Below the pieces are notes generated by a model. It ran no database searches and was not told the origin of the DNA. It saw only the letters and a program-made list of their open reading frames with translations. A program made the position numbers and the translations under genes. From Actinobacteria bacterium HGW-Actinobacteria-7 (lineage in GTDB: Bacteria > Actinomycetota > Coriobacteriia > Anaerosomatales > PHET01), in the NCBI GenBank assembly GCA_002841275.1, contig PHET01000004.1, forward strand, positions 11,873 to 75,872: DNA of 64,000 nucleotides, read 5' to 3'. Of the stretch, positions 7,579 to 62,529 are shown one piece after another. Numbering within the stretch: position 1 is the stretch's first letter; each line of letters opens with the position of its first letter.

Positions 7579-9435
7579 GTGGAAGAAATGGTCTTCGGAC
7601 GCAGATACCGGGTGACCGAGAAGATCGGCACCGGCGGTATGGCCGAGGTCTACAAAGCGGTCGACGAGGTGTTGGGGCGTACCGTCGCGGTCAAGGTGAT
7701 GCACCCGCGCTACGCCGCCGACGCAAGCTACGCTGCGCGCTTCCGGCAGGAGGCCTCGGCCGCGGCCAACCTCCAGAGTCCCTACGTCGTCAACATCTAC
7801 GACTGGGGCCAGGAGAACGACACCTACTACATCGTCATGGAGCTCGTCCGCGGCACCGACTTGAAGTCGGTCATCCAGAACAAGGGCGCGCTCGACTCCC
7901 GCCGTGTGGCGGAGATCGGCGCTCAGGTCTGCTCGGCGCTCAGCATCGCGCACGGCTATGACGTGATCCACCGAGACGTCAAGCCGCACAATATCATGGT
8001 GACCCCGGACGGTTCGGCCAAGGTCATGGACTTCGGCATCGCGCGTGCGGGCAACTCGACCATGACGCAGACCGGCAGCGTGCTGGGCACCGCCCACTAC
8101 GTGTCGCCCGAGCAGGCGCAGGGGCGCGTACTCACGCCGGCCAGCGACCTCTACTCGCTGGGCGTGGTGCTCTTCGAGGCCGCGACAGGCAAGCTCCCCT
8201 TCGACGCCGATTCGCCCGTAGCGGTCGCGCTCAAGCAGGTCAACGAACCCGCTCCCCTGCCGCGCCAAATCAATCCCAATATCGACCCCGGACTCGAAGC
8301 CATCATCGTGACCGCGATGGCGAAGGACCCCTCGGCCCGCTACGACACAGCCGAAGAGATGCGCCGGGACCTGCTGCGCGTGGTGCAGGGCCGCGACGTG
8401 ACAACCACCCCCGCGGTCCCTGTCGAGGTTGGCGCTGCGGCGGCCGGCCCCCTGCAGCACACTGCGGTCATGCCACAGGTCTCTGGAGACTCCTACGAGG
8501 GCGCTACGCCATCTGCAGCGCGTCGGCCGCAGCCGCGTAGGCGCGCTGTCTGGCCGTGGGTACTGCTGGCCGTCCTGCTCGTGGCCGGCGGACTGGCTTT
8601 GGCCGCCTCCAACGGGCTTCTTGGCGCGCAAGGAGTGCCTGTCCCTGGGGTCGTCGGGCTGAGCCGCGCGGACGCCCAGATCGCCATCACCGAAGCCGGC
8701 TTCGTCGTAGGCGAGATCCAGGAGATCAACGACAAGACCGCGCCCACCGGGCAGGTCATCGACCAATCTCCGGTCCCCAACGCCACTGCCGAGAAAGGCT
8801 CGGCCATCGACCTGACGATCAGCATAGGGCCCAAGCAGGTCGAAGTCCCCAAGCTCGTCGGATTGACCCGAGACGAAGCGCAGCAGGCAATCACCGATCT
8901 GGGCTTCGTGCCCAGCGTCGATTACGAGTCAAGCGACAAGGTGCCGGTCGATGAGGTCATCAGTCAGCAGCCTGAGGCGGGCACACCCGTCGACGAGGGT
9001 TCGACCGTAGCGTTCGTCGTGTCTCGCGGCCCCAAGGTAGCGGAAGTCCCCGGAGTCGTTGGAATGAAGAAGTCATCCGCCGAGAAGACCCTGAAGAAGG
9101 CCGGCTTCAAGGTCTCCTCCTCCGAGCAGTACGACGAGACTGTCGCGGCTGGTCTCGTCATCTCGCAGAACCCGAACAAGGGATTCGAGGGGACCGAGGG
9201 CTCGACGGTCTCAATCGTGGTGTCGCTCGGACCCAAGCGCTCAACAGTGCCCAAAGTCATCGGCAAGACCGAGGCGGAGGCCCGACAGCTCATAGAGGAC
9301 GCTGGCCTGGTTGCTCAGGTCACCTACTTCCTCTCGGACGGCACGGGGAAGGTCGTCGAGCAGACGCCCGCCAAAGACACAAAGGTTACACCGGGGTCTT
9401 CTGTCGAGATTCTCATCGACGCGACTGCTCCGTAG
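7579..9435 (+). CDS. pknB: PASTA-domain Ser/Thr kinase (4 PASTA repeats)
   Basis: GTGGMA, HRDVKPHN, DFGIA, TM, four VP.VVG-type repeats. Confidence 0.96.
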   Translation: MEEMVFGRRYRVTEKIGTGGMAEVYKAVDEVLGRTVAVKVMHPRYAADASYAARFRQEASAAANLQSPYVVNIYDWGQENDTYYIVMELVRGTDLKSVIQNKGALDSRRVAEIGAQVCSALSIAHGYDVIHRDVKPHNIMVTPDGSAKVMDFGIARAGNSTMTQTGSVLGTAHYVSPEQAQGRVLTPASDLYSLGVVLFEAATGKLPFDADSPVAVALKQVNEPAPLPRQINPNIDPGLEAIIVTAMAKDPSARYDTAEEMRRDLLRVVQGRDVTTTPAVPVEVGAAAAGPLQHTAVMPQVSGDSYEGATPSAARRPQPRRRAVWPWVLLAVLLVAGGLALAASNGLLGAQGVPVPGVVGLSRADAQIAITEAGFVVGEIQEINDKTAPTGQVIDQSPVPNATAEKGSAIDLTISIGPKQVEVPKLVGLTRDEAQQAITDLGFVPSVDYESSDKVPVDEVISQQPEAGTPVDEGSTVAFVVSRGPKVAEVPGVVGMKKSSAEKTLKKAGFKVSSSEQYDETVAAGLVISQNPNKGFEGTEGSTVSIVVSLGPKRSTVPKVIGKTEAEARQLIEDAGLVAQVTYFLSDGTGKVVEQTPAKDTKVTPGSSVEILIDATAP

Positions 9436-19654: not shown

Positions 19655-19917
19655 GGCTGAAGCAGCTGAGCTGCCCTACCGCGAAGCCCAGACCATGGGC
19701 GACTTTCCGATGCTAGAAGGAGAAGTAGGAGCACTTGTCATCCATTCCTCCTTCTCGCACTGGAGAGGTACCCACGAGTCGGATACCATGAACGAATGCT
19801 CATCCGCGTATTCAGTGGGCATGTGAGTCCTGACCGCGGCTACACAGTCGCCCGACGGCAGCGCCACCCCGGCGGCGAATGACCAGCAAGCCTGGCCCCT
19901 GCCGAAATGCACTACAC

Positions 19918-19955
19918 GCCCTCGTAGCTCAGGGGATAGAGCACAGGTTTCCTAA
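19918..19955 (+). tRNA. 5' half of tRNA-Arg(CCT), disrupted (attL of island 1)
   Basis: GCCCTCG TA GCTC AGGGGATA GAGC A CAGGT TTCCTAA; the expected ACCTG and T-arm do not follow. Confidence 0.85.
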
Positions 19956-42506: not shown

Positions 42507-42572
42507 AAGCCGGCTCTTCACCTTCTGCCGGCAAAGCTCTTGAGCTTCTTACCAGCGGAAACAGCACTACAC

Positions 42573-42610
42573 GCCCTCGTAGCTCAGGGGATAGAGCACA
42601 GGTTTCCTAA
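42573..42610 (+). tRNA. 5' half of tRNA-Arg(CCT), second copy (attR of island 1 / attL of element 2)
   Basis: Identical to 19918-19955 and again broken right after the anticodon loop. Confidence 0.85.
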
Positions 42611-43850: not shown

Positions 43851-44975
43851 CTATGCCGTTTGCGCGAACTCGCTGGTGGTATCGCTTGAAGCCGTAGTCA
43901 TACTCGCGGCAAGACGCTGCATTGCAGCAACGGTGTCTTCCTGCCGCACCTTCGTATACGTCCGAAGTATCTGTTGCGCACTAGAGCCAACCAACAGCGC
44001 AACTAAAGATGGCGAGGCTCCCTGACTAATCATCAGAGAGATGAAGGTTTTGCGAGCGAGATAATTGACCGCACTTCCTTCTGGCACCCGAAGACCAGAC
44101 CTCGTCAGCGAGGGGCGCAGAATATCTTTTGCGAACCGCTGCATATCACGACGCCGACCTCTGATAGTCGGGAAGACGAGGTCATCTACACCAGCGTTCA
44201 TCACTCGCTTTTGTTCTTGTAGTTCGTGCCGAAGGTCGGGCGTCATAGGAACCACCCTAGTAAGACCGTTCTTCGTGCCGTTACTGCCGTTCTTCGTGGC
44301 TGTTCGGCTGATAGTTATCGTTCCAGCGTTCCAGTCACAGTCGCCAAACCGCAACTCGCTACATTCAGAGGGACGCGCTCCCGTAGTGAACATCATTCGC
44401 ATCAGAGCGCGGTCACACCCTTTTGGGGTGCGGTTGATAAGTAGCGCCACCTGTTCGGCAGACAACACATAATCCACGCCAGTCGCGCCATCGCTAGTTC
44501 TAATGGTCTTCACTCTCGCTACTGGGTTCTGGCTGACGAGGTTGATTGCCACGGCATAGGACATCACAGCACCAAGGGTTACCAAGCATCGTTTTATAGT
44601 CAGGTCGCTTGAGCCAAGGTGCTTTTTGTAGGCAATCCAGCGCCCGATTGCTTCTGTCGTCACGCCACGACGAACCTTCGTATCCGAGAAGAACGGCAAC
44701 AGGTGGTTGTCCAACCGCGACTTGTAAGTAGTAATCGTCTGCTCACGAAGGTGATGCGTTCCGTTGACCAAATAGCGGTCAACCAACTCAGAGAACTTGA
44801 TGTCACGAGCCGTGGGTAGTTGGTTCTCTCGCCCTTTGGTGGCAAGACGGTCGTGAAGTTCTTGTGCTGCTCTCTTCTGGTGTCCACCGTTCACCCATAC
44901 TTGCTTGCCGTTCTGACGGACGACACACCAGAAGGTCTTGGTTCCATCCCTGTGTTCGCGCTCAACGATAGCCAT
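43851..44975 (-). CDS. int: Tyrosine integrase with non-canonical catalytic box II
   Basis: Start MAIVERE; TGARPSE, TKNG, NYLARKTF, VGSS, RTY. Confidence 0.88.
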   Translation of the reverse strand: MAIVEREHRDGTKTFWCVVRQNGKQVWVNGGHQKRAAQELHDRLATKGRENQLPTARDIKFSELVDRYLVNGTHHLREQTITTYKSRLDNHLLPFFSDTKVRRGVTTEAIGRWIAYKKHLGSSDLTIKRCLVTLGAVMSYAVAINLVSQNPVARVKTIRTSDGATGVDYVLSAEQVALLINRTPKGCDRALMRMMFTTGARPSECSELRFGDCDWNAGTITISRTATKNGSNGTKNGLTRVVPMTPDLRHELQEQKRVMNAGVDDLVFPTIRGRRRDMQRFAKDILRPSLTRSGLRVPEGSAVNYLARKTFISLMISQGASPSLVALLVGSSAQQILRTYTKVRQEDTVAAMQRLAASMTTASSDTTSEFAQTA

Positions 44976-45154
44976 TCCTGACCGTCCAATCCGTTGACCC
45001 GTGATTGACCGTAGGTCAACTACCTGCACTTTGTTCACATACAGAGACCATTGCGGTCTCACGCATTTGCCTACGACAGACGTCTTACCATTGCGTCATC
45101 GGAGATATCCAGTCTCTGTTGGGCGGCGTCAGAGACGACAGGTAGAATGACGGT

Positions 45155-49319: not shown

Positions 49320-49769
49320 TTACTGTCTGTGCCAACCGTATGTCTGAATGACATCGCGCAACAGCGCCTTGTTCTCGGTAATCGCCTGCTGGTCGTCGTC
49401 GGCTTCAACGAGCATCGGTAGATACGACATCACGCGATATTGAAGGGCTTTGTGACAATCTAACAGCGCCTTCTTACTAGCCCAACGACGCCAGCGTGTC
49501 TGCATATCATCCGTGTGCTTGCAGGTGCCACGCTTCTCGGCGATATCCAACAGCACCCTGAGCATCTTGCGGAACTCTTGTATCGCCTCGGTTATGTCAC
49601 CAGCGACCGCACGATAGTAAATGCGCTCCTGCTCTTGGGTCTTCAGAACGACAGAGACGCCAGCAATCCACTCGCATAGTTCATCAGCAGCAGCACGAGT
49701 GATGTTGTGTTTGCTCACCTGTTTATCCAACCATTCAGGACACTCAGGCTCTATATATGGTGATGCCAT
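49320..49769 (-). CDS. Hypothetical helical protein
   Basis: RBS GAGGA; 149-aa ORF. Confidence 0.55.
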   Translation of the reverse strand: MASPYIEPECPEWLDKQVSKHNITRAAADELCEWIAGVSVVLKTQEQERIYYRAVAGDITEAIQEFRKMLRVLLDIAEKRGTCKHTDDMQTRWRRWASKKALLDCHKALQYRVMSYLPMLVEADDDQQAITENKALLRDVIQTYGWHRQ

Positions 49770-49794: not shown

Positions 49795-49835
49795 CCTACG
49801 GGTGGGGATGTTGGGGGGACATCCCCACCCGTAGG
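49795..49835. terminator. 17-bp perfect inverted repeat downstream of the pilin-like genes
   Basis: CCTACGGGTGGGGATGT / ACATCCCCACCCGTAGG. Confidence 0.65.
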
Positions 49836-49910: not shown

Positions 49911-50891
49911 CTAAGGCGTTACCGCCATCATCGACGGCGTGTTGTCGATGACCATACTCGGCAGGGTTATGCCAGATGTCATTGACCACTTCACTCTGGT
50001 CGGAACTCTGCCCGCGACCCCTAATGCAGACCACGGAACTCGGCACTCAATAGCACTTCTGTCAGCGGCGTAGCCCGTTGTGGTTGATGCTGCCACGGAT
50101 GAACCGAGGCTACCGACGGTCTTGCTGCCGTCACCGTTGATTGGGTCATCCACACCGCCATAGCGATACAGCGTCGTAGACAGAACCGATGACATTCGTG
50201 TGTTTACTACGAGGACGAAGTCGGTCGCGGCTTCCATTCGCCCGTCTGCGTCTATATCCAAATACATCGTCCAGAAGGCGTTCGCTGAACCGCCAGCAAC
50301 CCTAGTGGCGTGTAGATATAGATATGAAGTGTCACCGTAGGCAGAGAGTAGATACAGGTCGTCAGAAGGTTGACCATTCGGGTCTGGGTCAGTCGGCTCA
50401 ATGGTGTCAGTGATATGTCCTGTTGGGCTACTCACAAGCGGTGCCCAGTCGGTCATAGTGCCGTCAATCACGATATTGGCGGCTGGCAGCGATACGACAA
50501 CGGGCAACGAGGTATGCCCTGCGGCGTCACGGACTTCGTATGTGCCGTTGGTCTTTGGCACGATGAATACTGGCGCGTTATCCTCGGCGACCTGAACATC
50601 GTCTTTGATGAGGCTGTATGGCGGGACACCCGAGCCACTGACAGCGATAGTTATACTGCCATTGCCGTTGTCGGTAATCGTGGACTCGGCACTCTCAAAG
50701 GTGCTGGCTACCTCTTGTGTGCCGACAGCAACAGCGCTCAGTGCCTCGGCGACTTGGATGTGCTTGAGCATCATTGCGTTGCTCAATACGCTCACACCGA
50801 GAGTGACCGCGAGAGCGGCGCAAATCATCAACAGGATGTATTCGACGTTGGTCGCGCCTCTTCGTTGTCGTGCGATTGGATAAACCATCAT
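49911..50891 (-). CDS. Flp/Tad-type prepilin N-terminus fused to Ig-like and carbohydrate-binding-like domains
   Basis: RQRRG/ATNVEYILL class III signal with EY; IVIDG..DW..YLYL..YLDID..IECRVPWSALG (DOMON/CBM9-like). Confidence 0.75.
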   Translation of the reverse strand: MMVYPIARQRRGATNVEYILLMICAALAVTLGVSVLSNAMMLKHIQVAEALSAVAVGTQEVASTFESAESTITDNGNGSITIAVSGSGVPPYSLIKDDVQVAEDNAPVFIVPKTNGTYEVRDAAGHTSLPVVVSLPAANIVIDGTMTDWAPLVSSPTGHITDTIEPTDPDPNGQPSDDLYLLSAYGDTSYLYLHATRVAGGSANAFWTMYLDIDADGRMEAATDFVLVVNTRMSSVLSTTLYRYGGVDDPINGDGSKTVGSLGSSVAASTTTGYAADRSAIECRVPWSALGVAGRVPTRVKWSMTSGITLPSMVIDNTPSMMAVTP

Positions 50892-50907
50892 TCAGTCCCC
50901 TTATTTG

Positions 50908-51231
50908 TCAGACCAAGTCGTCCTCAGTCAGTTCACCTAAAGCGTCTAGATACTCAATACGATGCTTGTCAGCCTGCTCGTAGATACTTGCTAGTAATCC
51001 AGCGACTACGACGGCTTGTTGCTGGATGTCGACCATCGCGTCGGCAAAGTCCTCGCGGTCATCTGCTATGCCAGCAGCCAATTTGCCGAGTTCTGCGACA
51101 GCGACAGCAAGCAGTAGGCTCGGCAGTTTGTTGTTCTCAAAGTCGTCACCCCATTTGGCAAGTGCTTCTAGACGCTCTTGTTCTACAAGAGCCAAGAACT
51201 CTTCAAGGATTGGCGAGTATGTGTCAGTCAT
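50908..51231 (-). CDS. MazG-like all-alpha NTP pyrophosphatase, degenerate
   Basis: ER..A..KWG..LLLAVAVAELGKLA..QAVVVAG; usual EE.GE acidic residues partly lost. Confidence 0.5.
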   Translation of the reverse strand: MTDTYSPILEEFLALVEQERLEALAKWGDDFENNKLPSLLLAVAVAELGKLAAGIADDREDFADAMVDIQQQAVVVAGLLASIYEQADKHRIEYLDALGELTEDDLV

Positions 51232-51245
51232 CGTTCTCACTCTCT

Positions 51246-52157
51246 CTACTCGTAGACGTAATCTAGGTAGATGCTCTCAACATCAAATAGACCGCTAGCA
51301 ACGCACTCTGCTTCCAATCGCACAGCCAAAGCGTCTCTAACGGATGGGTTAGACAAATCAAATCCAGCGTCAGAAGGGATGGTCATTCTGTAGGTGTGAT
51401 ACAGCGCGTCACTAGGAACATCCAAGAACCACCACGCGATAACATCCGTAGATGTCTCGGCGCTGACAGTCAGGGTTCGTGAAGGCAATGGTGCGACGGC
51501 AGCACGAACGACCACGACAATATCTAGTCTGCGGAATGCGCCTGGGTAGCCTGCTGGAATGACGTCTGGGTCACTCGCAAAATCTAATGTTAGGTTGCCG
51601 CCGAGTTCACGGGCGCGAACCTTGACGTTATCTGTTGTCCACAGCAACGGTGCCCAGTCATTGACATTCCAGTTGTCTGTAAGCGTCGGGGCAAACCACA
51701 GGCTCGTGCCGAGTTCATCAGGTATTAGTTGTGATGCTGGGCTACCCGTAACCCGTAGTTCAGAGTGATATTCAACGACGGTCACCGTAATCTCGTTCAA
51801 TACAGAGTCGGTAATCGTGTAGGTATTCACTCCCTGTTCTGGCGTCACGATTAGGTAGTAATCCTCAATCGCATCAGCGAGAGTATTAGTTCCATCCGTG
51901 ACCGTGAATGGTGCTATACCACCAGACCACGAGATTGTGTAAGTGCCATCACCGTTGTCTACGGGCGCATCACTAACAAGAGTTCCGCCAACATTGTCTG
52001 TGGCTGCTGTTGTAATAAGTGCCTCTGCGACTTGGATATGCTTGGCGTTCATCGTATTGCCGAGGTAGCCAAGACCTAGAGTCACAGCCAGCGCTCCAGC
52101 CACAATCAAGATGATGTATTCAACATTGACGGCTGCCCTGCGTTCTACATAAAACAT
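51246..52157 (-). CDS. Second Flp-type prepilin fusion protein with a different C-terminal domain
   Basis: ERRA/AVNVEYIIL..ALAVTLG..KHIQVAEAL; DNGDGTYTISWSGG. Confidence 0.75.
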   Translation of the reverse strand: MFYVERRAAVNVEYIILIVAGALAVTLGLGYLGNTMNAKHIQVAEALITTAATDNVGGTLVSDAPVDNGDGTYTISWSGGIAPFTVTDGTNTLADAIEDYYLIVTPEQGVNTYTITDSVLNEITVTVVEYHSELRVTGSPASQLIPDELGTSLWFAPTLTDNWNVNDWAPLLWTTDNVKVRARELGGNLTLDFASDPDVIPAGYPGAFRRLDIVVVVRAAVAPLPSRTLTVSAETSTDVIAWWFLDVPSDALYHTYRMTIPSDAGFDLSNPSVRDALAVRLEAECVASGLFDVESIYLDYVYE

Positions 52158-52182: not shown

Positions 52183-52689
52183 TTACTCACTGCGTTTGTC
52201 CTGTATCTCAATCACGACTGTCGCGTGTTGTTCATCAGAGGTAACGACCGTCACCTCTAGGTCGGCATCAATGAATGACGGGAACTTGAAGCCAATCATC
52301 TGAGAGACTGCCATTCCGATACGACGGGTTGCGAGGTCAACTACCTGCTTCACAACACGCTCGTCATAGATGGTCTGGGCGGCACCCGACGAATACCAGA
52401 CACGGCACAAGCGGTCGGCTTTGAGGTGGTATTCAAAGCGGTAGTGTCCGTCAGAGACAGTCGGTGGCTCACCATCAATACCTATGGTCTGACCGTTGTA
52501 GGGTTTGCCATTGGCATCAACGAGAATATGGGCACCCGCACCGAATGCATCGTGAAGGTCTTCCTTCAGACGACGACCGATATTCAGGTGGTTGCTGACA
52601 TAGTCGCCACTGATTGAAGTAGCATAGAGATAGACCTTACTCTTTACAGTCTTATCTTTTATAACTGGTTTGATAATCGCAGTTGCCAT
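52183..52689 (-). CDS. Hypothetical protein heading the pilin operon
   Basis: AAGGGG RBS, start MATAII at 52689; AT-rich promoter region upstream. Confidence 0.6.
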   Translation of the reverse strand: MATAIIKPVIKDKTVKSKVYLYATSISGDYVSNHLNIGRRLKEDLHDAFGAGAHILVDANGKPYNGQTIGIDGEPPTVSDGHYRFEYHLKADRLCRVWYSSGAAQTIYDERVVKQVVDLATRRIGMAVSQMIGFKFPSFIDADLEVTVVTSDEQHATVVIEIQDKRSE

Positions 52690-52877
52690 CGGTGTTACCC
52701 CCTTAAGAGTAACCCTACTACGATAATATACTATAGCAAGTATATGCAAGTGTTTATCGCTATACGGTATGATTATTCGGTGAGTGGTAGGAGTACGTTA
52801 AGTGATTAGATAGCACACTACTTTGATTGTTCAATTGAATACCGCTATTTGCCGTGCGATAATGAGAACAGCAACAA

Positions 52878-53035
52878 AGAAGGGCTGTAGCGGTAACTAC
52901 AACCCTTCTCGTAGTCCCAGCGAGGGGACTTATTCCGACGGCTCGGTCTTTTCAGCGGCACCACCCCTCGCGGGGCTACTCACTTCGTCGGGTAGTGAGC
53001 CTTTATCGTCTGGTCGTGCCGACCATCGACGTCTT
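52878..53035 (-). ncRNA. Putative TnpB omegaRNA (reRNA) plus terminator
   Basis: Overlaps the tnpB 3' end; CTCACT/AGTGAG hairpin whose loop (52986-52991) is complementary to 52935-52940 (pseudoknot); hairpin 52913-52930; terminator-like hairpin 52878-52909 with U-rich tail on minus. Boundaries approximate. Confidence 0.6.
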
Positions 53036-54199
53036 ACCTCTGACAGCGATGTTCTTGGCGCTGTTCAAATCCCTATCCATCACCAACCCACACTTCGGGC
53101 ATTCATAGACCCTGTCTTGCTTCGCCATCTCTTTGATATGACCGCACGAGGAACAAGTCATCGTGGTGTAAGCAGGGTTTACTGTCTTGACCGTCGCCCC
53201 GTTGTCAGCCGCTCTTCCTCTGTCGGTCAACGCCCTTCTCAGGTTGTTCACGGCTACCTTCTTCCAGCCGTGGTAATCCTTGAAGCCGTCCCGCAAGTCC
53301 ATATCCTCAAAGAAGATGTGTTTGGCACCCAGCGACACGACGAAGCGAACAATCACAAGGTGGTGTTCCTTGATGATATTGGCTCTGCGTCCCTTCGCTC
53401 TCTCAAGCAATCGCAGTAGTTCACGATGCCTACGGCTTCCGTAAGTGATGTTGCCTTCGTCCAGCAGCCGCCTGTAATAGCGTATGTCTCTGTCGGCTGC
53501 TGATGTATCAGGAAGGTCAAAGACCATTCCTTCGCCAGTGCCATCGTCAGCAAGGTAGTAGACCGCACAAGTGTTACTAGTGTTGATGTCTATCCCGATG
53601 ACCCCAGAACCCTTCTTGGTTATCTGTGCCTTCGATATCTCATACGACACGGACACATCCCAGCGACCCTCTTCAATCCTCTGGATGACAACCGCCTTGG
53701 CTGTGAATTCACCAGATAATCCACCGAAGTCAAAGTCCTTGATGCGGGAACGCAGGACTCCAACAATCGGGACTTCTATGAACCCGACACCGAGAACACA
53801 GTCACTCGCTTTGAACTGGATGCTCGGATGCTCAACCTTCGGCTTGCGTTTGGGCGTTCTCGCTTTGGTGCTGTGGCTCTTGGAATATCTGTTATAGGCA
53901 TCGCGGCATCTCTCAACACCGACGCTCACCTCTTCACGACAAACAAGAAGACCCTCGTCTGATTTGATTAACTCAGCGAGGGTCTCATTCTTGGCGCGGG
54001 CAGCAAGAGTAGGAACCTCGGCTAATCGTGCCTCTAGGTCTCTATTGCTCTGGAACCTCTGCTCGGCATCCCACAACTTCACGCGATTATCGTGGGCGAA
54101 GTTATAGCCAAGGCGAACAAGATAGGACAACGCGAGCAGTTGTCTATCCTGCGTGCGGTTCACTCGCACTCTCACTGATTGTTGATGTCGTCTTGCCAT
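53003..54199 (-). CDS. tnpB: RNA-guided endonuclease TnpB family
   Basis: RuvC I GIDIN, RuvC II FFEDM, VNPAYTT.TCSSCG..CPKCG Zn finger, RuvC III DRDLNSAKNI; all three acidic residues present. Confidence 0.93.
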   Translation of the reverse strand: MARRHQQSVRVRVNRTQDRQLLALSYLVRLGYNFAHDNRVKLWDAEQRFQSNRDLEARLAEVPTLAARAKNETLAELIKSDEGLLVCREEVSVGVERCRDAYNRYSKSHSTKARTPKRKPKVEHPSIQFKASDCVLGVGFIEVPIVGVLRSRIKDFDFGGLSGEFTAKAVVIQRIEEGRWDVSVSYEISKAQITKKGSGVIGIDINTSNTCAVYYLADDGTGEGMVFDLPDTSAADRDIRYYRRLLDEGNITYGSRRHRELLRLLERAKGRRANIIKEHHLVIVRFVVSLGAKHIFFEDMDLRDGFKDYHGWKKVAVNNLRRALTDRGRAADNGATVKTVNPAYTTMTCSSCGHIKEMAKQDRVYECPKCGLVMDRDLNSAKNIAVRGKTSMVGTTRR

Positions 54200-54252
54200 T
54201 TGTGACCGCCCCTTCCCCCGAAGTCCTCGGTCACGAGGAATGTTGGAAGAGG

Positions 54253-54852
54253 TTACTTCTGCTGCTTCTTCTCGGTGTCCACGACCGCGACAATCACGAA
54301 CTTTGGTTCACCATCCGAGCCGATGTTCAGCATCTTCGTTTGACCTGTATGGACGCCGTAATTCCTGTCGTCCGCTGTTGGAACACACGGGACACCCAGA
54401 CGAACGCCGACACCAGAGCGGAAGGTCTTCACCGTCATCTGGATGTTCAGAGGCTCGCTCACCTTGTTTATCTTCGGTGTCGCCAAATCCTCGTCCAAAT
54501 CCACGCCGTCACCGAGTGAATACTGAACATCGATGTCTGCTGCGATATCAGACATCACGCGGTTTATCGCCAAATAGATGTAGCGACGCGGGATAGCAGC
54601 CGCCTGCTGCTTCTTGCCTTTGTGCTTCCCGCTCTCGGGGACATAGTCAACTTGCTCATTGAAGCGCTCATTCTCTTTATCTAGAACGGCAGAGGTTACT
54701 GCCTTCTCATCTGGTAGACCCGTTTGCGCCATCTTACGAACCAAATCCGCTATGTCATTACACAGGTTCCTATAATCACTTTGTAATCCAGTGAGCGCGA
54801 ATAAGTCCTCATACTTCTGAGGTTCCAACTTGTAATGAACGATACTAGTCAT
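54253..54852 (-). CDS. TnpB/Cas12f N-terminal-lobe-like protein (WED-REC) without RuvC
   Basis: MTSIVHYKLEP..L..LQSDYRNLCN; IPRRYIYLAINRV; terminal beta strands KFVIVAVVDTE; resemblance judged by eye. Confidence 0.5.
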   Translation of the reverse strand: MTSIVHYKLEPQKYEDLFALTGLQSDYRNLCNDIADLVRKMAQTGLPDEKAVTSAVLDKENERFNEQVDYVPESGKHKGKKQQAAAIPRRYIYLAINRVMSDIAADIDVQYSLGDGVDLDEDLATPKINKVSEPLNIQMTVKTFRSGVGVRLGVPCVPTADDRNYGVHTGQTKMLNIGSDGEPKFVIVAVVDTEKKQQK

Positions 54853-55120: not shown

Positions 55121-55620
55121 TTGTGATGAGCAGATGTGGATAGATAATGTCACCGCTGAATTCCTACAAGAATGTCATCCACCGATACGAACTATCTAGC
55201 AGGGCGTGGGTTACGACTTCCTATGGACGGACATCACACCTACGAACTATTTGTTGTGGATAGATAGAACGTCAGAATGACCTTCCCTGATATACACGGG
55301 CGCGGGAATGCCAACTCTTCTCTCACTACAAAGGTCTTAAGGGATTGAACGGGTGAACCGCCAGAGCATCCCAGTGGAACTCTGTTCTACGTTCTTAGTC
55401 TGCGGCGGCGGAATTCTGTTGCGGCTGGGTCGGTGGCGGCTCGTATTGGCAAATCGCTTACGAACCTTGTTCGGACGAGCATTTGTCCACCGAACCGCTT
55501 ACCTCAAGGATTTACTAATAGGAACGCTTGAACACGGGGACATTTGCTGCTGCCTAACAACCGCGTCGTCACCGTAGCCCGATTATCACCAGATATCTGA
55601 TGGGTTCTGGATGGTTCGGT

Positions 55621-56332: not shown

Positions 56333-56998
56333 ATGAGTGTGGGGACACTTACGATGGCGAAGAGGGTACGGGTTTACGGCGTAGCGATAATGGTAGTAGT
56401 AATCACTATCGTCGTTATCAACAGCATCTTGACAACAGTAAAGACGCACGACGCGGCAATGACCATCAAAAGCAATATGACGGGTGTTCCTGCCTACCAA
56501 GTAGCGAACCTCGGTCGTTGGCACGGAAGTCTTCCAATGGCGAGAACCACCATCACCACAACCACCGTTGATATGAAGAACAACGATTACGCGGCTGCGT
56601 ATGACGAAGAAGCCGTTGGTGGCTACCTCTGGGGAACTGGCGAGATTGTAGTGAAGCCGCAAGCCTCACAAATGGTTCTGGCGCACGAATACGGACACGC
56701 ACTCACAGCCGACGCACTTACGGTCTACGAGAACGGCGATATGACAGCCGCGACGAACGTTCTGTTTGACGAGGTTCTGGACTTCAACAGGACAAGCGAT
56801 GTGCGCGAACTACCAGCGCAACTGCGCGATGTCGCAGCCGAGTATCAATCGGTAGACCCAGACATCTACGGAAGCACCTACTACACCGAACGACTTACTG
56901 AATATCTCGCTCAATCATTTGCGCGTTACACAGCAGGGCAAACTGTTCCACCCGTCGTTGGGGAATGGCTGGCGGAACTTGATGGCGAGGGGCGATAA
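56333..56998 (+). CDS. Membrane-anchored Zn metallopeptidase (ATLF/Pro-Pro endopeptidase-like)
   Basis: N-terminal TM; GGY, VLAHEYGHA, Y..TEYLAQSFARY. Confidence 0.75.
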   Translation: MSVGTLTMAKRVRVYGVAIMVVVITIVVINSILTTVKTHDAAMTIKSNMTGVPAYQVANLGRWHGSLPMARTTITTTTVDMKNNDYAAAYDEEAVGGYLWGTGEIVVKPQASQMVLAHEYGHALTADALTVYENGDMTAATNVLFDEVLDFNRTSDVRELPAQLRDVAAEYQSVDPDIYGSTYYTERLTEYLAQSFARYTAGQTVPPVVGEWLAELDGEGR

Positions 56999-59158: not shown

Positions 59159-59926
59159 TCAACAACGAGAGCCGCAGACACCAATAAGTGCGCATATTGA
59201 ACATTCAGGGTCGCTAGCGTGGCAGTAGTCCAGCCCAATGATGAACAAGCCATCCCATTCAACAGGGGCATAGGGCGATAGTTCTCTCGCCTTGTCTATT
59301 ACTTCTTGTGGTGAGGCATCCTCGCTTACCAGCCCGAGGCGTGTCATTACTCTTGAACAATGCCTGTCGGGGCTAATGTCCAAGCCAGCGTAGTTGTCCC
59401 ACAGAGTTACTCCATGTGAGAGAACAGCCACACGGCAATACAAGCCCGAAGTCTTAGCCCCATAGCCGCCAAAGGACATCACCCTTTGTAGGAACTGTTG
59501 TCCCGTGGGTTCGTCGGCGTGTAGGAACCTAGCAGAGCCGCCCCACTCGTCTCGTATACGACACATCGCCTGATGGCAGTGTTCAACGGTGTATCTGTAT
59601 CGCAACAGGCTTCCGTTACGACCACCAGCCGCCGCGTAATCACCGTCATCATCAAAGGCAAGCCACTCTAGTAACACATCGTTGTTGATAGTAAAGAGCG
59701 TCAGTGTGTCGTGAATACCTGACCGCATCTTCATCTCGTTGACGAACCCGAGTTCAGTGGCGGAACCCATAGCACGCTCCCACTGAATACCTCTGTTGAC
59801 CAAACAGGATATGAATAGTGAGTTCCAGCCTTCGTCATCAAGAGGCTGTCTGTCCTGCGGTGACCTCGCCATATCACCCCAGAAGTTGTTGGCGGCAATC
59901 TTCCTGATGTAATCAATCCTGTTCAT
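59159..59926 (-). CDS. HhH-GPD / endonuclease III-like DNA glycosylase with [4Fe-4S] motif
   Basis: GYGAKTS (HhH Lys), PDRHCSRV..RLGL (Asp), C-x6-C-x2-C-x5-C. Confidence 0.82.
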   Translation of the reverse strand: MNRIDYIRKIAANNFWGDMARSPQDRQPLDDEGWNSLFISCLVNRGIQWERAMGSATELGFVNEMKMRSGIHDTLTLFTINNDVLLEWLAFDDDGDYAAAGGRNGSLLRYRYTVEHCHQAMCRIRDEWGGSARFLHADEPTGQQFLQRVMSFGGYGAKTSGLYCRVAVLSHGVTLWDNYAGLDISPDRHCSRVMTRLGLVSEDASPQEVIDKARELSPYAPVEWDGLFIIGLDYCHASDPECSICALIGVCGSRC

Positions 59927-60618
59927 CACACGAGACCTTCCACAAGCGCGGGACAAACCTGTTGGGCACAGCACGAAGTGCAACACTCTGGACATCTGTG
60001 GACGCCGTGCCACTCACTCATACACGCGATATCCAAGGGGTAGCGTTCTAATGCTCGCCGCGCCTCTTCCCTCAAAGCGTCATAGCCCGAGGACATAAAG
60101 AACTCGGGCTGGAATGGCTCAACGACAGAGAGCCGAGTAAGCAAGAGAGCGGCACCTGATGTTGGTGTCACGCGAGAATTCGGGTGTCCAAGTATCTTTA
60201 GTAGATAGTTGCCTACGGTCGGCTCGTGGGGTGCCAGTCGTTCCACATACTCACGGACATATCCGCTGTCAGCATCTCTCGCTTCCCGCAAGTCACCATC
60301 AGCAAGGGTCTTTAGGAACCCAAGGATTATCTTGCGGCACTCACTGACTTGCCGTTCTGGAACAGCCCGCAAAGTAGTCCAGATGGCGGTCTCAAGTTCG
60401 CTTCGTCCTACACCTCGGACTTCAGTCAGACTGCGGACGCCTAGATACTCCACCATCCCGCAAATGGCGTAATAGACACCGACTGCACTACCGAAGGCGA
60501 TAAAGTCACCAGAGAGAACAACCGCGAGACATAGCCTCGTCAATTCTTCTTTGTCGTCATAGTTGATTACGGGCAGTTGGATGTTGGAGGGTGGGATTAT
60601 TGCTTGGTAGGCAAGCAA
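59926..60618 (-). CDS. Divergent HhH-GPD-like protein with Cys-rich tail, catalytic motifs lost
   Basis: TVGNYLL.ILG, LLTRL.V, C-terminal CPECCTSCCAQQVCP; TGATG coupling to the downstream glycosylase. Confidence 0.5.
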   Translation of the reverse strand: MLAYQAIIPPSNIQLPVINYDDKEELTRLCLAVVLSGDFIAFGSAVGVYYAICGMVEYLGVRSLTEVRGVGRSELETAIWTTLRAVPERQVSECRKIILGFLKTLADGDLREARDADSGYVREYVERLAPHEPTVGNYLLKILGHPNSRVTPTSGAALLLTRLSVVEPFQPEFFMSSGYDALREEARRALERYPLDIACMSEWHGVHRCPECCTSCCAQQVCPALVEGLV

Positions 60619-61191: not shown

Positions 61192-62529
61192 ATGGCACTA
61201 TATAACTATCCTGTCGGCGATATTCCTGATGAACTGTTCCAACTCATCAACCTCGGAATTCGCAACGCACGAGACCATTCTGTCGGCACACCTGACAAGA
61301 TAAAGATGACCCTCAAGCAAGCCGAGAAGATGCTTCCTGACGACTTCTCACGGTTCACCGCTTGCCTTCTCGGACGCTACAAACTACTCACCAAAGCAGA
61401 CTTGTTGGTCATCTATCTCACTATCTCTAACGGGTGCGCTGATGGACTGATTGCGTCACTACAACAGCAGTTCGGTATCCCCTTTGATGTCCAGAAGGCT
61501 GTCGGTGGGCTGACCAAGAAGACCTCTGCGAAGAACAAACTAGGGTTTGCGATAGACGACGGCGCGTTCCGCACGATGACCCCAAGCGCCGTGAATGTCC
61601 GTATCCAGACCCAGTTATATGACGAGGGTTTGTCACCCTTCGTTGCGCTCACTCGTCACGGTGTCAAAGCGATGACTTTGCTCGCCAAAGCCAATGGTAA
61701 GAAGTTGTCGGCGAAGGACATCCAGATACCGACGCAGAAGTCCGCTGTCCAAATCCCTAAGTGGTTGCACGAGCGTCAGGTCGGTGACCTCATCGCTATG
61801 ACAATCGCTGGCGCATCATTCACGCACGGCGGGGGCTACAAAGGGCTGAAGACATCTTGCGTTGTGGATGAACTGCTGACCGAGGTTCCCCTGAAGTTCA
61901 AGCACGCTGGAAGCGACCACTACTACAAACCTGACTTGGGGTTGACGCTCACCTATATGGTTGCCAGCGATAAGGGCGTCAAGAAGGACACTATCGTGGC
62001 GTGGGTTGAACACGACACCACGAGCAACGACAAAGATGCGATACAAGGCAAGATAAAGAACCACCTGCTGTATGTCCAAGACCAAGAGGGCAAGCCGCCG
62101 TATCTACTGCTGACATCCAGCAGCGATGAACGGATGCACCAGACAATCGAACCTGCCGTTAGAGACGCTCTCAAGGCTGTTGTCGGTATGTCCTTTGTGG
62201 ACTACACGGAGCAGGTCGGTCGTATCGCGTTCGCCTCTCACAACGATATATCCCTCGTCGGAATGCTCGGTAAGGGCGAAGTGGGGTTATGGCGTAAGTG
62301 GGACTTCAAGAACGAGTGCTTTGAAGACAAGAAGCACACTCTCGTCAGTCTCGACCGCGCTGAGAAGAAGAGTGCCACAACCAACAGCCAGACGGCGGAT
62401 AACCATCAATCGGTTGAGGATATTCGTGAACGTAAGGGTTCTTCGTGCGGTCTTGTCGGATACCGCGATAGCGACATAGAGATAACGCCCGTGAGTGCGC
62501 CGATTGGCTGGCGTGAGGAAGTGGCGTAG
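61192..62529 (+). CDS. Replication-relaxation (Replic_Relax/MOBL-like) family protein
   Basis: LT..G, WLHE..V, YKPD, WVEHDTTS..IQGKI..H, LLLTSS..R pattern. Confidence 0.62.
   Translation: MALYNYPVGDIPDELFQLINLGIRNARDHSVGTPDKIKMTLKQAEKMLPDDFSRFTACLLGRYKLLTKADLLVIYLTISNGCADGLIASLQQQFGIPFDVQKAVGGLTKKTSAKNKLGFAIDDGAFRTMTPSAVNVRIQTQLYDEGLSPFVALTRHGVKAMTLLAKANGKKLSAKDIQIPTQKSAVQIPKWLHERQVGDLIAMTIAGASFTHGGGYKGLKTSCVVDELLTEVPLKFKHAGSDHYYKPDLGLTLTYMVASDKGVKKDTIVAWVEHDTTSNDKDAIQGKIKNHLLYVQDQEGKPPYLLLTSSSDERMHQTIEPAVRDALKAVVGMSFVDYTEQVGRIAFASHNDISLVGMLGKGEVGLWRKWDFKNECFEDKKHTLVSLDRAEKKSATTNSQTADNHQSVEDIRERKGSSCGLVGYRDSDIEITPVSAPIGWREEVA

Follow-up and report, generated by a model that had tools for sequence, protein, structure and literature searches.

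There is precedent for mobile elements that furnish pilins to the type IVa pili of their hosts and to archaeal pili. The PilV adhesins of shufflons, which are part of a plasmid-encoded pilus, are switched by DNA inversion. The PilV adhesins of IncI plasmids have a constant N terminus and an exchanged C-terminal binding domain (PMC9045228). P-FimU of Pseudomonas F10-like prophages is a very diverse minor pilin that is built into the tip of the host pilus, although the integrated element that encodes it has no assembly genes (10.1101/2024.03.29.587342), and the SNJ2 provirus carries two tandem pilin genes, PilA1-2, on an integrated element (PMC12426801); the pilins of both elements use host machines. 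A class III signal with a grafted binding module is found in PilB and PilC of Streptococcus sanguinis, and such bulky modular pilins have been modeled at tips only (10.1101/2021.01.27.428410), while interchangeable variable domains are exposed at the tips of Tad pili, which are formed by TadE/F/G and by Myxococcus KilLMN (PMC12075869). Here we analyzed a stretch of 64,000 nucleotides (nt) of contig PHET01000004.1 (C1) of Actinobacteria bacterium HGW-Actinobacteria-7, referred to below as the window. An integrated element in this window encodes two proteins, A and B, each consisting of a predicted Flp-like N-terminal helix (head), an Ig-like stalk, and an exchangeable tail. Our reading, to which we assign a probability of roughly 0.55, is that A and B are element-encoded modular minor pilins that are displayed on the host Tad pilus.

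An earlier note on this DNA, made from the sequence alone, had reported both open reading frames (ORFs) and had described them as Flp-pilin-headed proteins with a class III signal, a shared Ig-like module, and divergent C termini, and this description was borne out. A and B each have a short polar leader ending in G, A, or S, followed by Glu5 and a long hydrophobic helix, as expected for a class III signal; the cleavage motifs are RRA/AVNVEY in A and RRG/ATNVEY in B (the slash marks the cleavage site), and KHIQVAEAL is common to the two. When all ORFs of the genome were scanned for the class III motif, 11 were found, namely, Flp, TadE, four type IVa pilins, A, B, and three doubtful cases. By BLASTP, A and B were 36% identical across 173 columns (E value, 2e-19), with the alignment limited to the first ~150 residues. 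Part by part, the 39-amino-acid (aa) mature heads were 67% identical and the stalks were 25% identical, and the tails, which gave no alignment (E value, ~1), are unrelated. In AlphaFold models of both proteins, the N-terminal helix is single and continuous and the stalk is confidently predicted (predicted local distance difference test [pLDDT] score, 70 to 90). The structural matches of the A tail were all middling (BcsB, Z score of 8.7; CBM15, Z score of 8.0; satellite virus capsid protein, Z score of 8.0). The fold of the B tail was drawn from an Atlas model because the AlphaFold model of this tail (pLDDT of about 30) was unusable; in the Atlas, it resembles CBM9 and glucodextranase-C (feature score, 0.92; template modeling score, 0.60 to 0.84 over the listed rows), a likeness that is a lead and stands below our bar for naming. 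Tyr6 and the absence of Pro22 are marks of Tad pilins (PMC10710030), and both proteins have Glu5 and Tyr6 and lack Phe1 and Pro22. The helix-only Flp/Tad major pilins have ~45 mature residues, a size that does not fit A (303 aa) or B (326 aa), with their two globular domains. The fusion of a pilin N terminus to nonpilus domains, here an FN3 stalk and varied tails, is that of a modular pilin. By the tests applied here, A and B are not Flp major pilins, are not TadE or TadG subunits, and are not part of a TldR system.

A tRNA-Arg(CCT) gene is interrupted in its anticodon loop by a 26.9-kb element: the 5′ half of the gene stops at 42603-42610, and C1 81399 is where the 3′ half begins again. The element brings its own complete tRNA-Arg(CCT), and near 42.6 kb the guanine-plus-cytosine content, about 60% before that point, falls to 52%. 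Its cargo includes two tyrosine recombinases, a type III restriction-modification pair, an MT-A70 methylase, TnpB, and many orphan ORFs. Consistent with the observation in the earlier note that the window shows no Tad secretion genes or prepilin peptidase, we found no pilus ATPase, prepilin peptidase, relaxase, or convincing virion gene in the element, most of whose ORFs have no family. Mating-pair recognition, one of the roles that had been suggested for A and B, is unlikely because no conjugation genes (relaxase or type IV secretion) were found among the same, mostly familyless ORFs. The host has its own machinery. Contig C12, a different contig from that of the A and B genes, carries a complete tad locus (flp, tadE, tadG, cpaB, tadZ, tadA, tadB, and tadC, where we take three genes to be tadZ, tadB, and tadC from their sequence and gene order), and the single A24 prepilin peptidase of the host is encoded in a type IVa locus on contig C14. 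In this genome (G000), the pilin genes sit on an integrated element in which no assembly genes were detected, and the host has a set of its own. The host tad locus, which the earlier note had suggested looking for, encodes an Flp whose cleavage site, EEG/ATAVEY, resembles those of the element heads, and a family profile made from seven heads ranked Flp first among the 7 host pilins (E value, 9e-5; next, 0.004).

A search with a family profile in 1.84 billion representatives gave 491 matches at an E value of ≤0.001, 150 of which were listed; the 42 listed proteins whose match begins in the head were kept as family members, and five of these are query members. Word-indexed searches gave 6 clusters. 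G, A, or S at position -1 and Glu5 were present in 41 of the 42 listed head-bearing proteins, the remaining one being a fragment, but this count is partly circular because the cleavage site was found by searching for that motif. Phe1 and Pro22 were each found in 0/41 listed heads, and Tyr6 was found in 20/41. The 42 tails formed at least 24 clusters among the matches listed; this is a rough count, in which two tails of <25 aa were dropped, P0006 and P0008 were added, and some links may run via a second copy of the stalk. Pfam domains in 36 head-bearing proteins comprised BNR/YCF48 propellers (4 proteins), carboxypeptidase-regulatory domains (3, one of them weak), RCC1 (2), leucine-rich repeats (1), and a five-heme cytochrome (1). 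At least one CxxCH motif was present in 9/41 listed members, and P0006, P0024, P0026, and P0053, with two to five such motifs, are pilin-headed multiheme cytochromes. Tails have also moved between head types. In a relative described below (G075), a head that is 85% identical to that of B is joined to a tail that is 39 to 42% identical to that of A (E value, 8e-38), and P0041 has the reverse combination: judged by eye, its head is A-like, and its tail falls in the cluster of B; these comparisons indicate a real swap. Three pairs of members, each with a longest contig of the same size (5122, 4180, and 5460 bases) and each pairing an A-like head with a B-like head, hint at tandem A-like/B-like pairs; the candidates for such pairing are P0002 and P0024, P0006 and P0029, and P0015 and P0037.

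Genomic context is provided by relatives from the same order. Searching 146 genomes of the order with a head-plus-stalk profile gave four full genes in three genomes; the remaining three matches were head only and lay 2 to 2.6 kb from cpaB, and the one that was inspected is a tandem flp gene. In G075, from another family of the order, the same tRNA also harbors an element, and the two elements are syntenic: that of G075 has a zincin-like ORF, a 199-aa ORF, tnpB, ORF X, a 110-aa ORF, a single pilin-like gene, and a 149-aa ORF. Between the B head and the head of the G075 protein, the proportion of nonsynonymous differences (pN) was 0.11 at a proportion of synonymous differences (pS) of 0.76, where synonymous sites are near saturation, compared with pN values of 0.22 to 0.52 for seven neighboring genes and 0.39 to 0.50 for the stalks and tail. 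Judged by these rates, the head is under strong constraint. The third carrier, G091, has a more distant family gene (L021 6896-7903) with the site G/GINLE, the same stalk, and a further tail; a contig end is 1.2 kb away from this gene, the surrounding stretch seems to be inserted into a host gene, and the genome has tad. A leader of 78 residues precedes its class III site, and leaders of 39 to 108 residues occur in 8/41 listed members. Viral-contig scans, metagenome scans, and 50,697 phage records yielded no further loci; a scan of a genome collection yielded one (L040), which is identical to the G075 locus and was excluded from the counts. A sample of 400 other genomes of the phylum contained two head-only matches and zero full head-plus-stalk genes.

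We propose that the single A24 prepilin peptidase of the host would likely cleave A and B and that the exported proteins would enter the host Tad pilus via the Flp-like helix, co-assembling with host Flp. Their position would probably be the pilus tip, because the shaft would have no room for a globular part of ~250 aa. Through the tail, the carrier cell would gain a new surface for binding ligands, with glycan-type folds in this element and heme-bearing tails in relatives, and the tail might also mask a phage receptor. We favor adhesion or ligand binding over receptor masking because the propeller, lectin-like, and heme tails look functional; counter to this preference, masking can drive such diversity in the case of P-FimU (10.1101/2024.03.29.587342). 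The idea of tip adhesins in the host Tad pilus, as put forward in the earlier note, gains from the host tad locus and peptidase, the Flp-like cleavage site, the location on an element, and the tail swap. It loses from G075.

Several results weigh against assembly into a Tad pilus, and the main one is that no Flp, TadA, CpaB, or TadE was detectable in G075, a genome that is 96% complete and has an intact pilin gene. The earlier note had staked its reading on Tad machinery in the host or the element, and such machinery is present in G000 and was not detected in G075. The presence of tad in 2/3 carrier genomes is no different from the background of 65/146 in the order and is informative neither way. 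Moreover, the context is known for four genes in three genomes only, and other members may be chromosomal. A and B had no meaningful match in Pfam, PHROGs, or NCBIfam: they did not match Pfam Flp_Fap even at an E value of ≤1 (the sole Flp_Fap match in the family, that of P0025, scored 23.8, under the cutoff of 32.2), and they matched neither TadE nor Tad (TadG), which the host TadE and TadG do match. Gly7 of the flp motif is missing from both proteins, Thr2 is present in B only, and Leu or Met replaces Tyr6 in 21/41 listed heads. The best match to a pilin of solved structure, Caulobacter Flp, was weak (E value, 1.2), and the predicted tail folds are middling matches (Z scores of 8 to 8.7) that reveal no function.

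The absence of detectable tad from G075, together with the intact pilin-like gene there, also fits the alternative that survives best, although we think it unlikely, namely, that the Flp-like helix is a membrane anchor only and that A and B are single-pass surface adhesins, or inhibitors of pilus assembly, that never enter the filament. The stalk is a repeat unit of large surface proteins, which is in keeping with this idea: the other 108 of the 150 listed matches have it without an N-terminal head, mostly in many copies, and one of these that was scanned has SprB repeats. Inhibition of assembly is raised for truncated phage pilins in the preprint on P-FimU (10.1101/2024.03.29.587342). However, the cleavage site, Glu5, and the polar KHIQVAEAL end of the helix are conserved beyond any neighboring gene, which is more than an anchor needs, and a pure inhibitor would not require two dozen types of tail.

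It is likewise improbable that, once processed, the pilins are assembled by the type IVa machinery of the host (PilB/PilC) or by any type IV machine that the cell happens to have. G075 has PilB/PilT-like ATPases, the location of the only A24 peptidase of the G000 host in the type IVa locus is in line with this possibility, and either of two host PilB-PilC pairs can serve the SNJ2 pilins (PMC12426801). The heads themselves point the other way, since all four host type IVa pilins have the Phe1 that none of the listed heads has and since the head profile prefers Flp.

Receptor-binding proteins typically have hypervariable tails, and the element could be an unrecognized nontailed virus, with A and B serving as its virion spikes or as receptor-binding proteins whose tips vary. 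Integration at a tRNA, the integrases, the many orphan ORFs, and the match of the A tail to jelly-roll capsid proteins as well as to carbohydrate-binding modules (Z scores of 7.5 to 8.0) agree with such a virus. We nevertheless hold it to be very improbable, as no convincing structural or packaging family was found among 28 element ORFs in PHROGs, no relative was found in the viral-contig scans or the phage records, and a prepilin site indicates the cell envelope.

The earlier note had placed A and B directly downstream of TnpB and had seen in this a parallel to TldR and prophage flagellin, in which a TnpB-family gene likewise stands beside an element-borne gene for a surface filament (10.1101/2023.11.30.569447). 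The genes are on the same strand, but tnpB is followed first by a terminator-like hairpin (52877-52910) and a 168-aa ORF, so that A and B are not its immediate neighbors; the earlier note had missed this ORF as well as the 110-aa ORF between the pilin genes. In both complete elements, tnpB has no transposase and follows the 199-aa orphan (window, 53003-54852; L019, 6460-8366). The linkage of tnpB to the pilin gene, which had been suggested as a check, is conserved in 2/2 complete elements, and so is that of most neighbors. TnpB scored above the NCBIfam cutoff for guided TnpB. The two TnpBs are only 28% identical, with RuvC motifs GIDIN/FFEDM/DRDLN in G000 and GIDLG/VIEGM/DRDEA in G075. The 128 nt after the tnpB stop codon, hairpin included, fold well (z of -5.1). 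As the guide boundary was not defined, the whole 411-nt region after tnpB was slid along the genome; its longest exact match elsewhere was 14 nt, compared with 14 to 17 nt for 30 mononucleotide shuffles, and it had no match above chance in flp or upstream of flp, contrary to the earlier suggestion that the guide might match there. TldRs are defined by RuvC decay (10.1101/2023.11.30.569447). It is thus highly improbable that TnpB acts like a TldR, silencing host flp so that the element pilins replace those of the host: its position upstream of the pilin operon, without a transposase and followed by a structured region, would suit such a role, but the idea fails because the D-E-D triad (along with the zinc ribbon) is intact in both copies, the hairpin stands between tnpB and the operon, and the search for a guide-like match to flp gave none, and G075, moreover, has no detectable flp to repress. 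TnpB is a conserved neighbor and not a repressor of host flp, and it may have a role in the maintenance or defense of the element itself. By eye, the 199-aa ORF had been considered a TnpB N terminus, and BLASTP and hhalign gave nothing for this candidate. In sequencing run X1, contigs break at 52221-52246 and 55431-55458, and the tnpB-holding stretch between these points is slightly deeper (11.2 versus 9.5); run X2 is unbroken.

By analogy, A and B would function like P-FimU and the SNJ2 pilins, from which the Flp-type head and the hypervariable tail distinguish them, and they are built like a modular pilin. As a mimic of a type IVa minor pilin, P-FimU varies by loops and a longer C terminus (10.1101/2024.03.29.587342), whereas the present proteins have an Flp-like head, with whole tails exchanged on an FN3 stalk, and come from an element with no recognizable phage genes. 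PilA1-2 of SNJ2 are archaeal major pilins that form the whole filament and have no modular tails (PMC12426801). The S. sanguinis proteins, type IVa subunits encoded on the chromosome, have a Phe-type N terminus and fold as globular pilins (10.1101/2021.01.27.428410), unlike the bare Flp-length helix that here precedes an FN3 domain on a mobile element. The Tad tip proteins and KilLMN are host-encoded heterotrimers (PMC12075869), and A and B match neither the TadE nor the TadG model. As for a shufflon like that of PilV (PMC9045228), no inverted repeats flanking the tails stood out within the 25 longest of 228 inverted pairs, and neither variants nor inversions of the pilin genes were seen in the contigs from three DNA runs (low-depth sets of one study). 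No RNA data set carrying the sequence was listed. One 22-nt joint in these contigs was set aside, as its source contig matches only as two short pieces. In a literature search that left subscription journals mostly uncovered, we found no element-encoded Flp-headed modular pilin and no exchange of whole domains on such a subunit.

A tentative generalization, about which we remain doubtful, is that small integrated elements of anaerobic Actinomycetota spread plug-in tips for the host Tad pilus, each made of an Flp-like docking helix, an FN3 spacer, and a tail drawn from two dozen kinds or more, with an A-type and a B-type protein often paired. The tail library would range from glycan binders and beta-propellers through multiheme cytochromes. 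If this is true, one gene could let a mobile element reprogram pilus binding or add a redox-active tip. Confirmation of display on the Tad pilus would extend host-pilus remodeling to Tad, offer a one-chain alternative to the TadE/F/G tip, and provide a natural scaffold for domain display on Tad pili, and the heme-bearing tails would make cytochrome-carrying pilus tips a testable question.

Table 1. Coordinates of the integrated element and of features around the pilin genes (window positions unless marked C1)
Feature	Position	Strand	Description
Integrated element	42603-64000 in window, continuing past window end	.	Left attachment site (attL) at 42603 (tRNA-Arg(CCT) anticodon loop); right attachment site (attR) at window-equivalent 69527 (C1 81399)
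Tyrosine recombinase	43851-45062	-	
Second tyrosine recombinase	C1 79539-81041		
149-aa ORF after pilin gene	49320-49769	-	Position conserved in G075 (46%)
Terminator-like hairpin	49795-49835	-	17 pairs; just 3′ of pilin B
Modular pilin B gene	49911-50891	-	326 aa; leader, Flp-like head, FN3/Ig stalk, CBM9/glucodextranase-C-like tail
B tail	49911-50486	-	CBM9_1/Glucodextran_C look-alikes (Atlas); common to P0041, P0066, and P0067
B stalk	50487-50738	-	Predicted FN3/Ig; Z score 8.7, root-mean-square deviation 2.7, 70 aligned
B head	50739-50855	-	Mature +1 to +39; G/ATNVEY; Thr2, Glu5, Tyr6, no Pro22
110-aa ORF between pilin genes	50908-51240	-	No family; 49% identical ortholog precedes G075 pilin gene
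Modular pilin A gene	51246-52157	-	303 aa; leader, Flp-like head, FN3/Ig stalk, jelly-roll tail
A tail	51246-51767	-	Predicted jelly-roll; common to G075 protein and P0005
A stalk	51768-52016	-	Predicted FN3/Ig beta-sandwich; Z score 8.9, root-mean-square deviation 2.4, 76 aligned
A head	52017-52133	-	Mature +1 to +39; A/AVNVEY; Glu5, Tyr6, no Pro22
ORF X	52183-52689	-	168 aa; first gene of putative operon; 36% identical in G075; no family
Structured region after tnpB	52875-53002	-	z of -5.1; ends in 15-pair terminator-like hairpin, 52877-52910
TnpB	53003-54199	-	D-E-D and zinc ribbon intact; single copy in genome; same position in G075
199-aa ORF upstream of tnpB	54253-54852	-	Conserved in G075 (34%); no family

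ORF X, the A gene, the 110-aa ORF, and the B gene are bracketed by terminator-like hairpins, which are matches to the consensus only, and are likely an operon (Table 1). The start codon of A was taken as the ATG at 52157, and the open frame extends to 52211. We take the 110-aa ORF to recall MazG-like helical proteins with a worn acidic motif; its sole PHROG match was weak (E value, 0.008). A 30-nt motif, CAATTGA.CAATCAA.GT.G.GTGCTATCTA, is conserved between the elements of G000 and G075 in otherwise diverged intergenic DNA (window, 52800-52840; L019, about 8545-8580) and looks like a promoter or operator.

Elsewhere in the element, a membrane-anchored HExxH metallopeptidase-like ORF (56333-56998), 64% identical in G075, is among the best conserved element genes. 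Two adjoining HhH-GPD/endonuclease III-like ORFs with C-terminal cysteine clusters (59159-60618) are also conserved in G075, as is a 445-aa orphan with no family (61192-62529; 68% identical), which had been considered by eye to be a Replic_Relax protein and had no match to PF13814. The tRNA-Arg(CCT) gene holds two stacked elements. The first repeats the 47-bp 5′ half of the tRNA (19909-19955 and 42564-42610), and the second, which is the element described here, interrupts the tRNA in its anticodon loop and brings along a tRNA-Arg(CCT) that is complete but different (G000 C1 81089-81164; 81399). G075 has the same tRNA layout with yet another replacement tRNA. The neighboring element (19955-42564) carries GmrSD, a C5 methylase, DUF5131, a HEAT-repeat protein, and two integrases.

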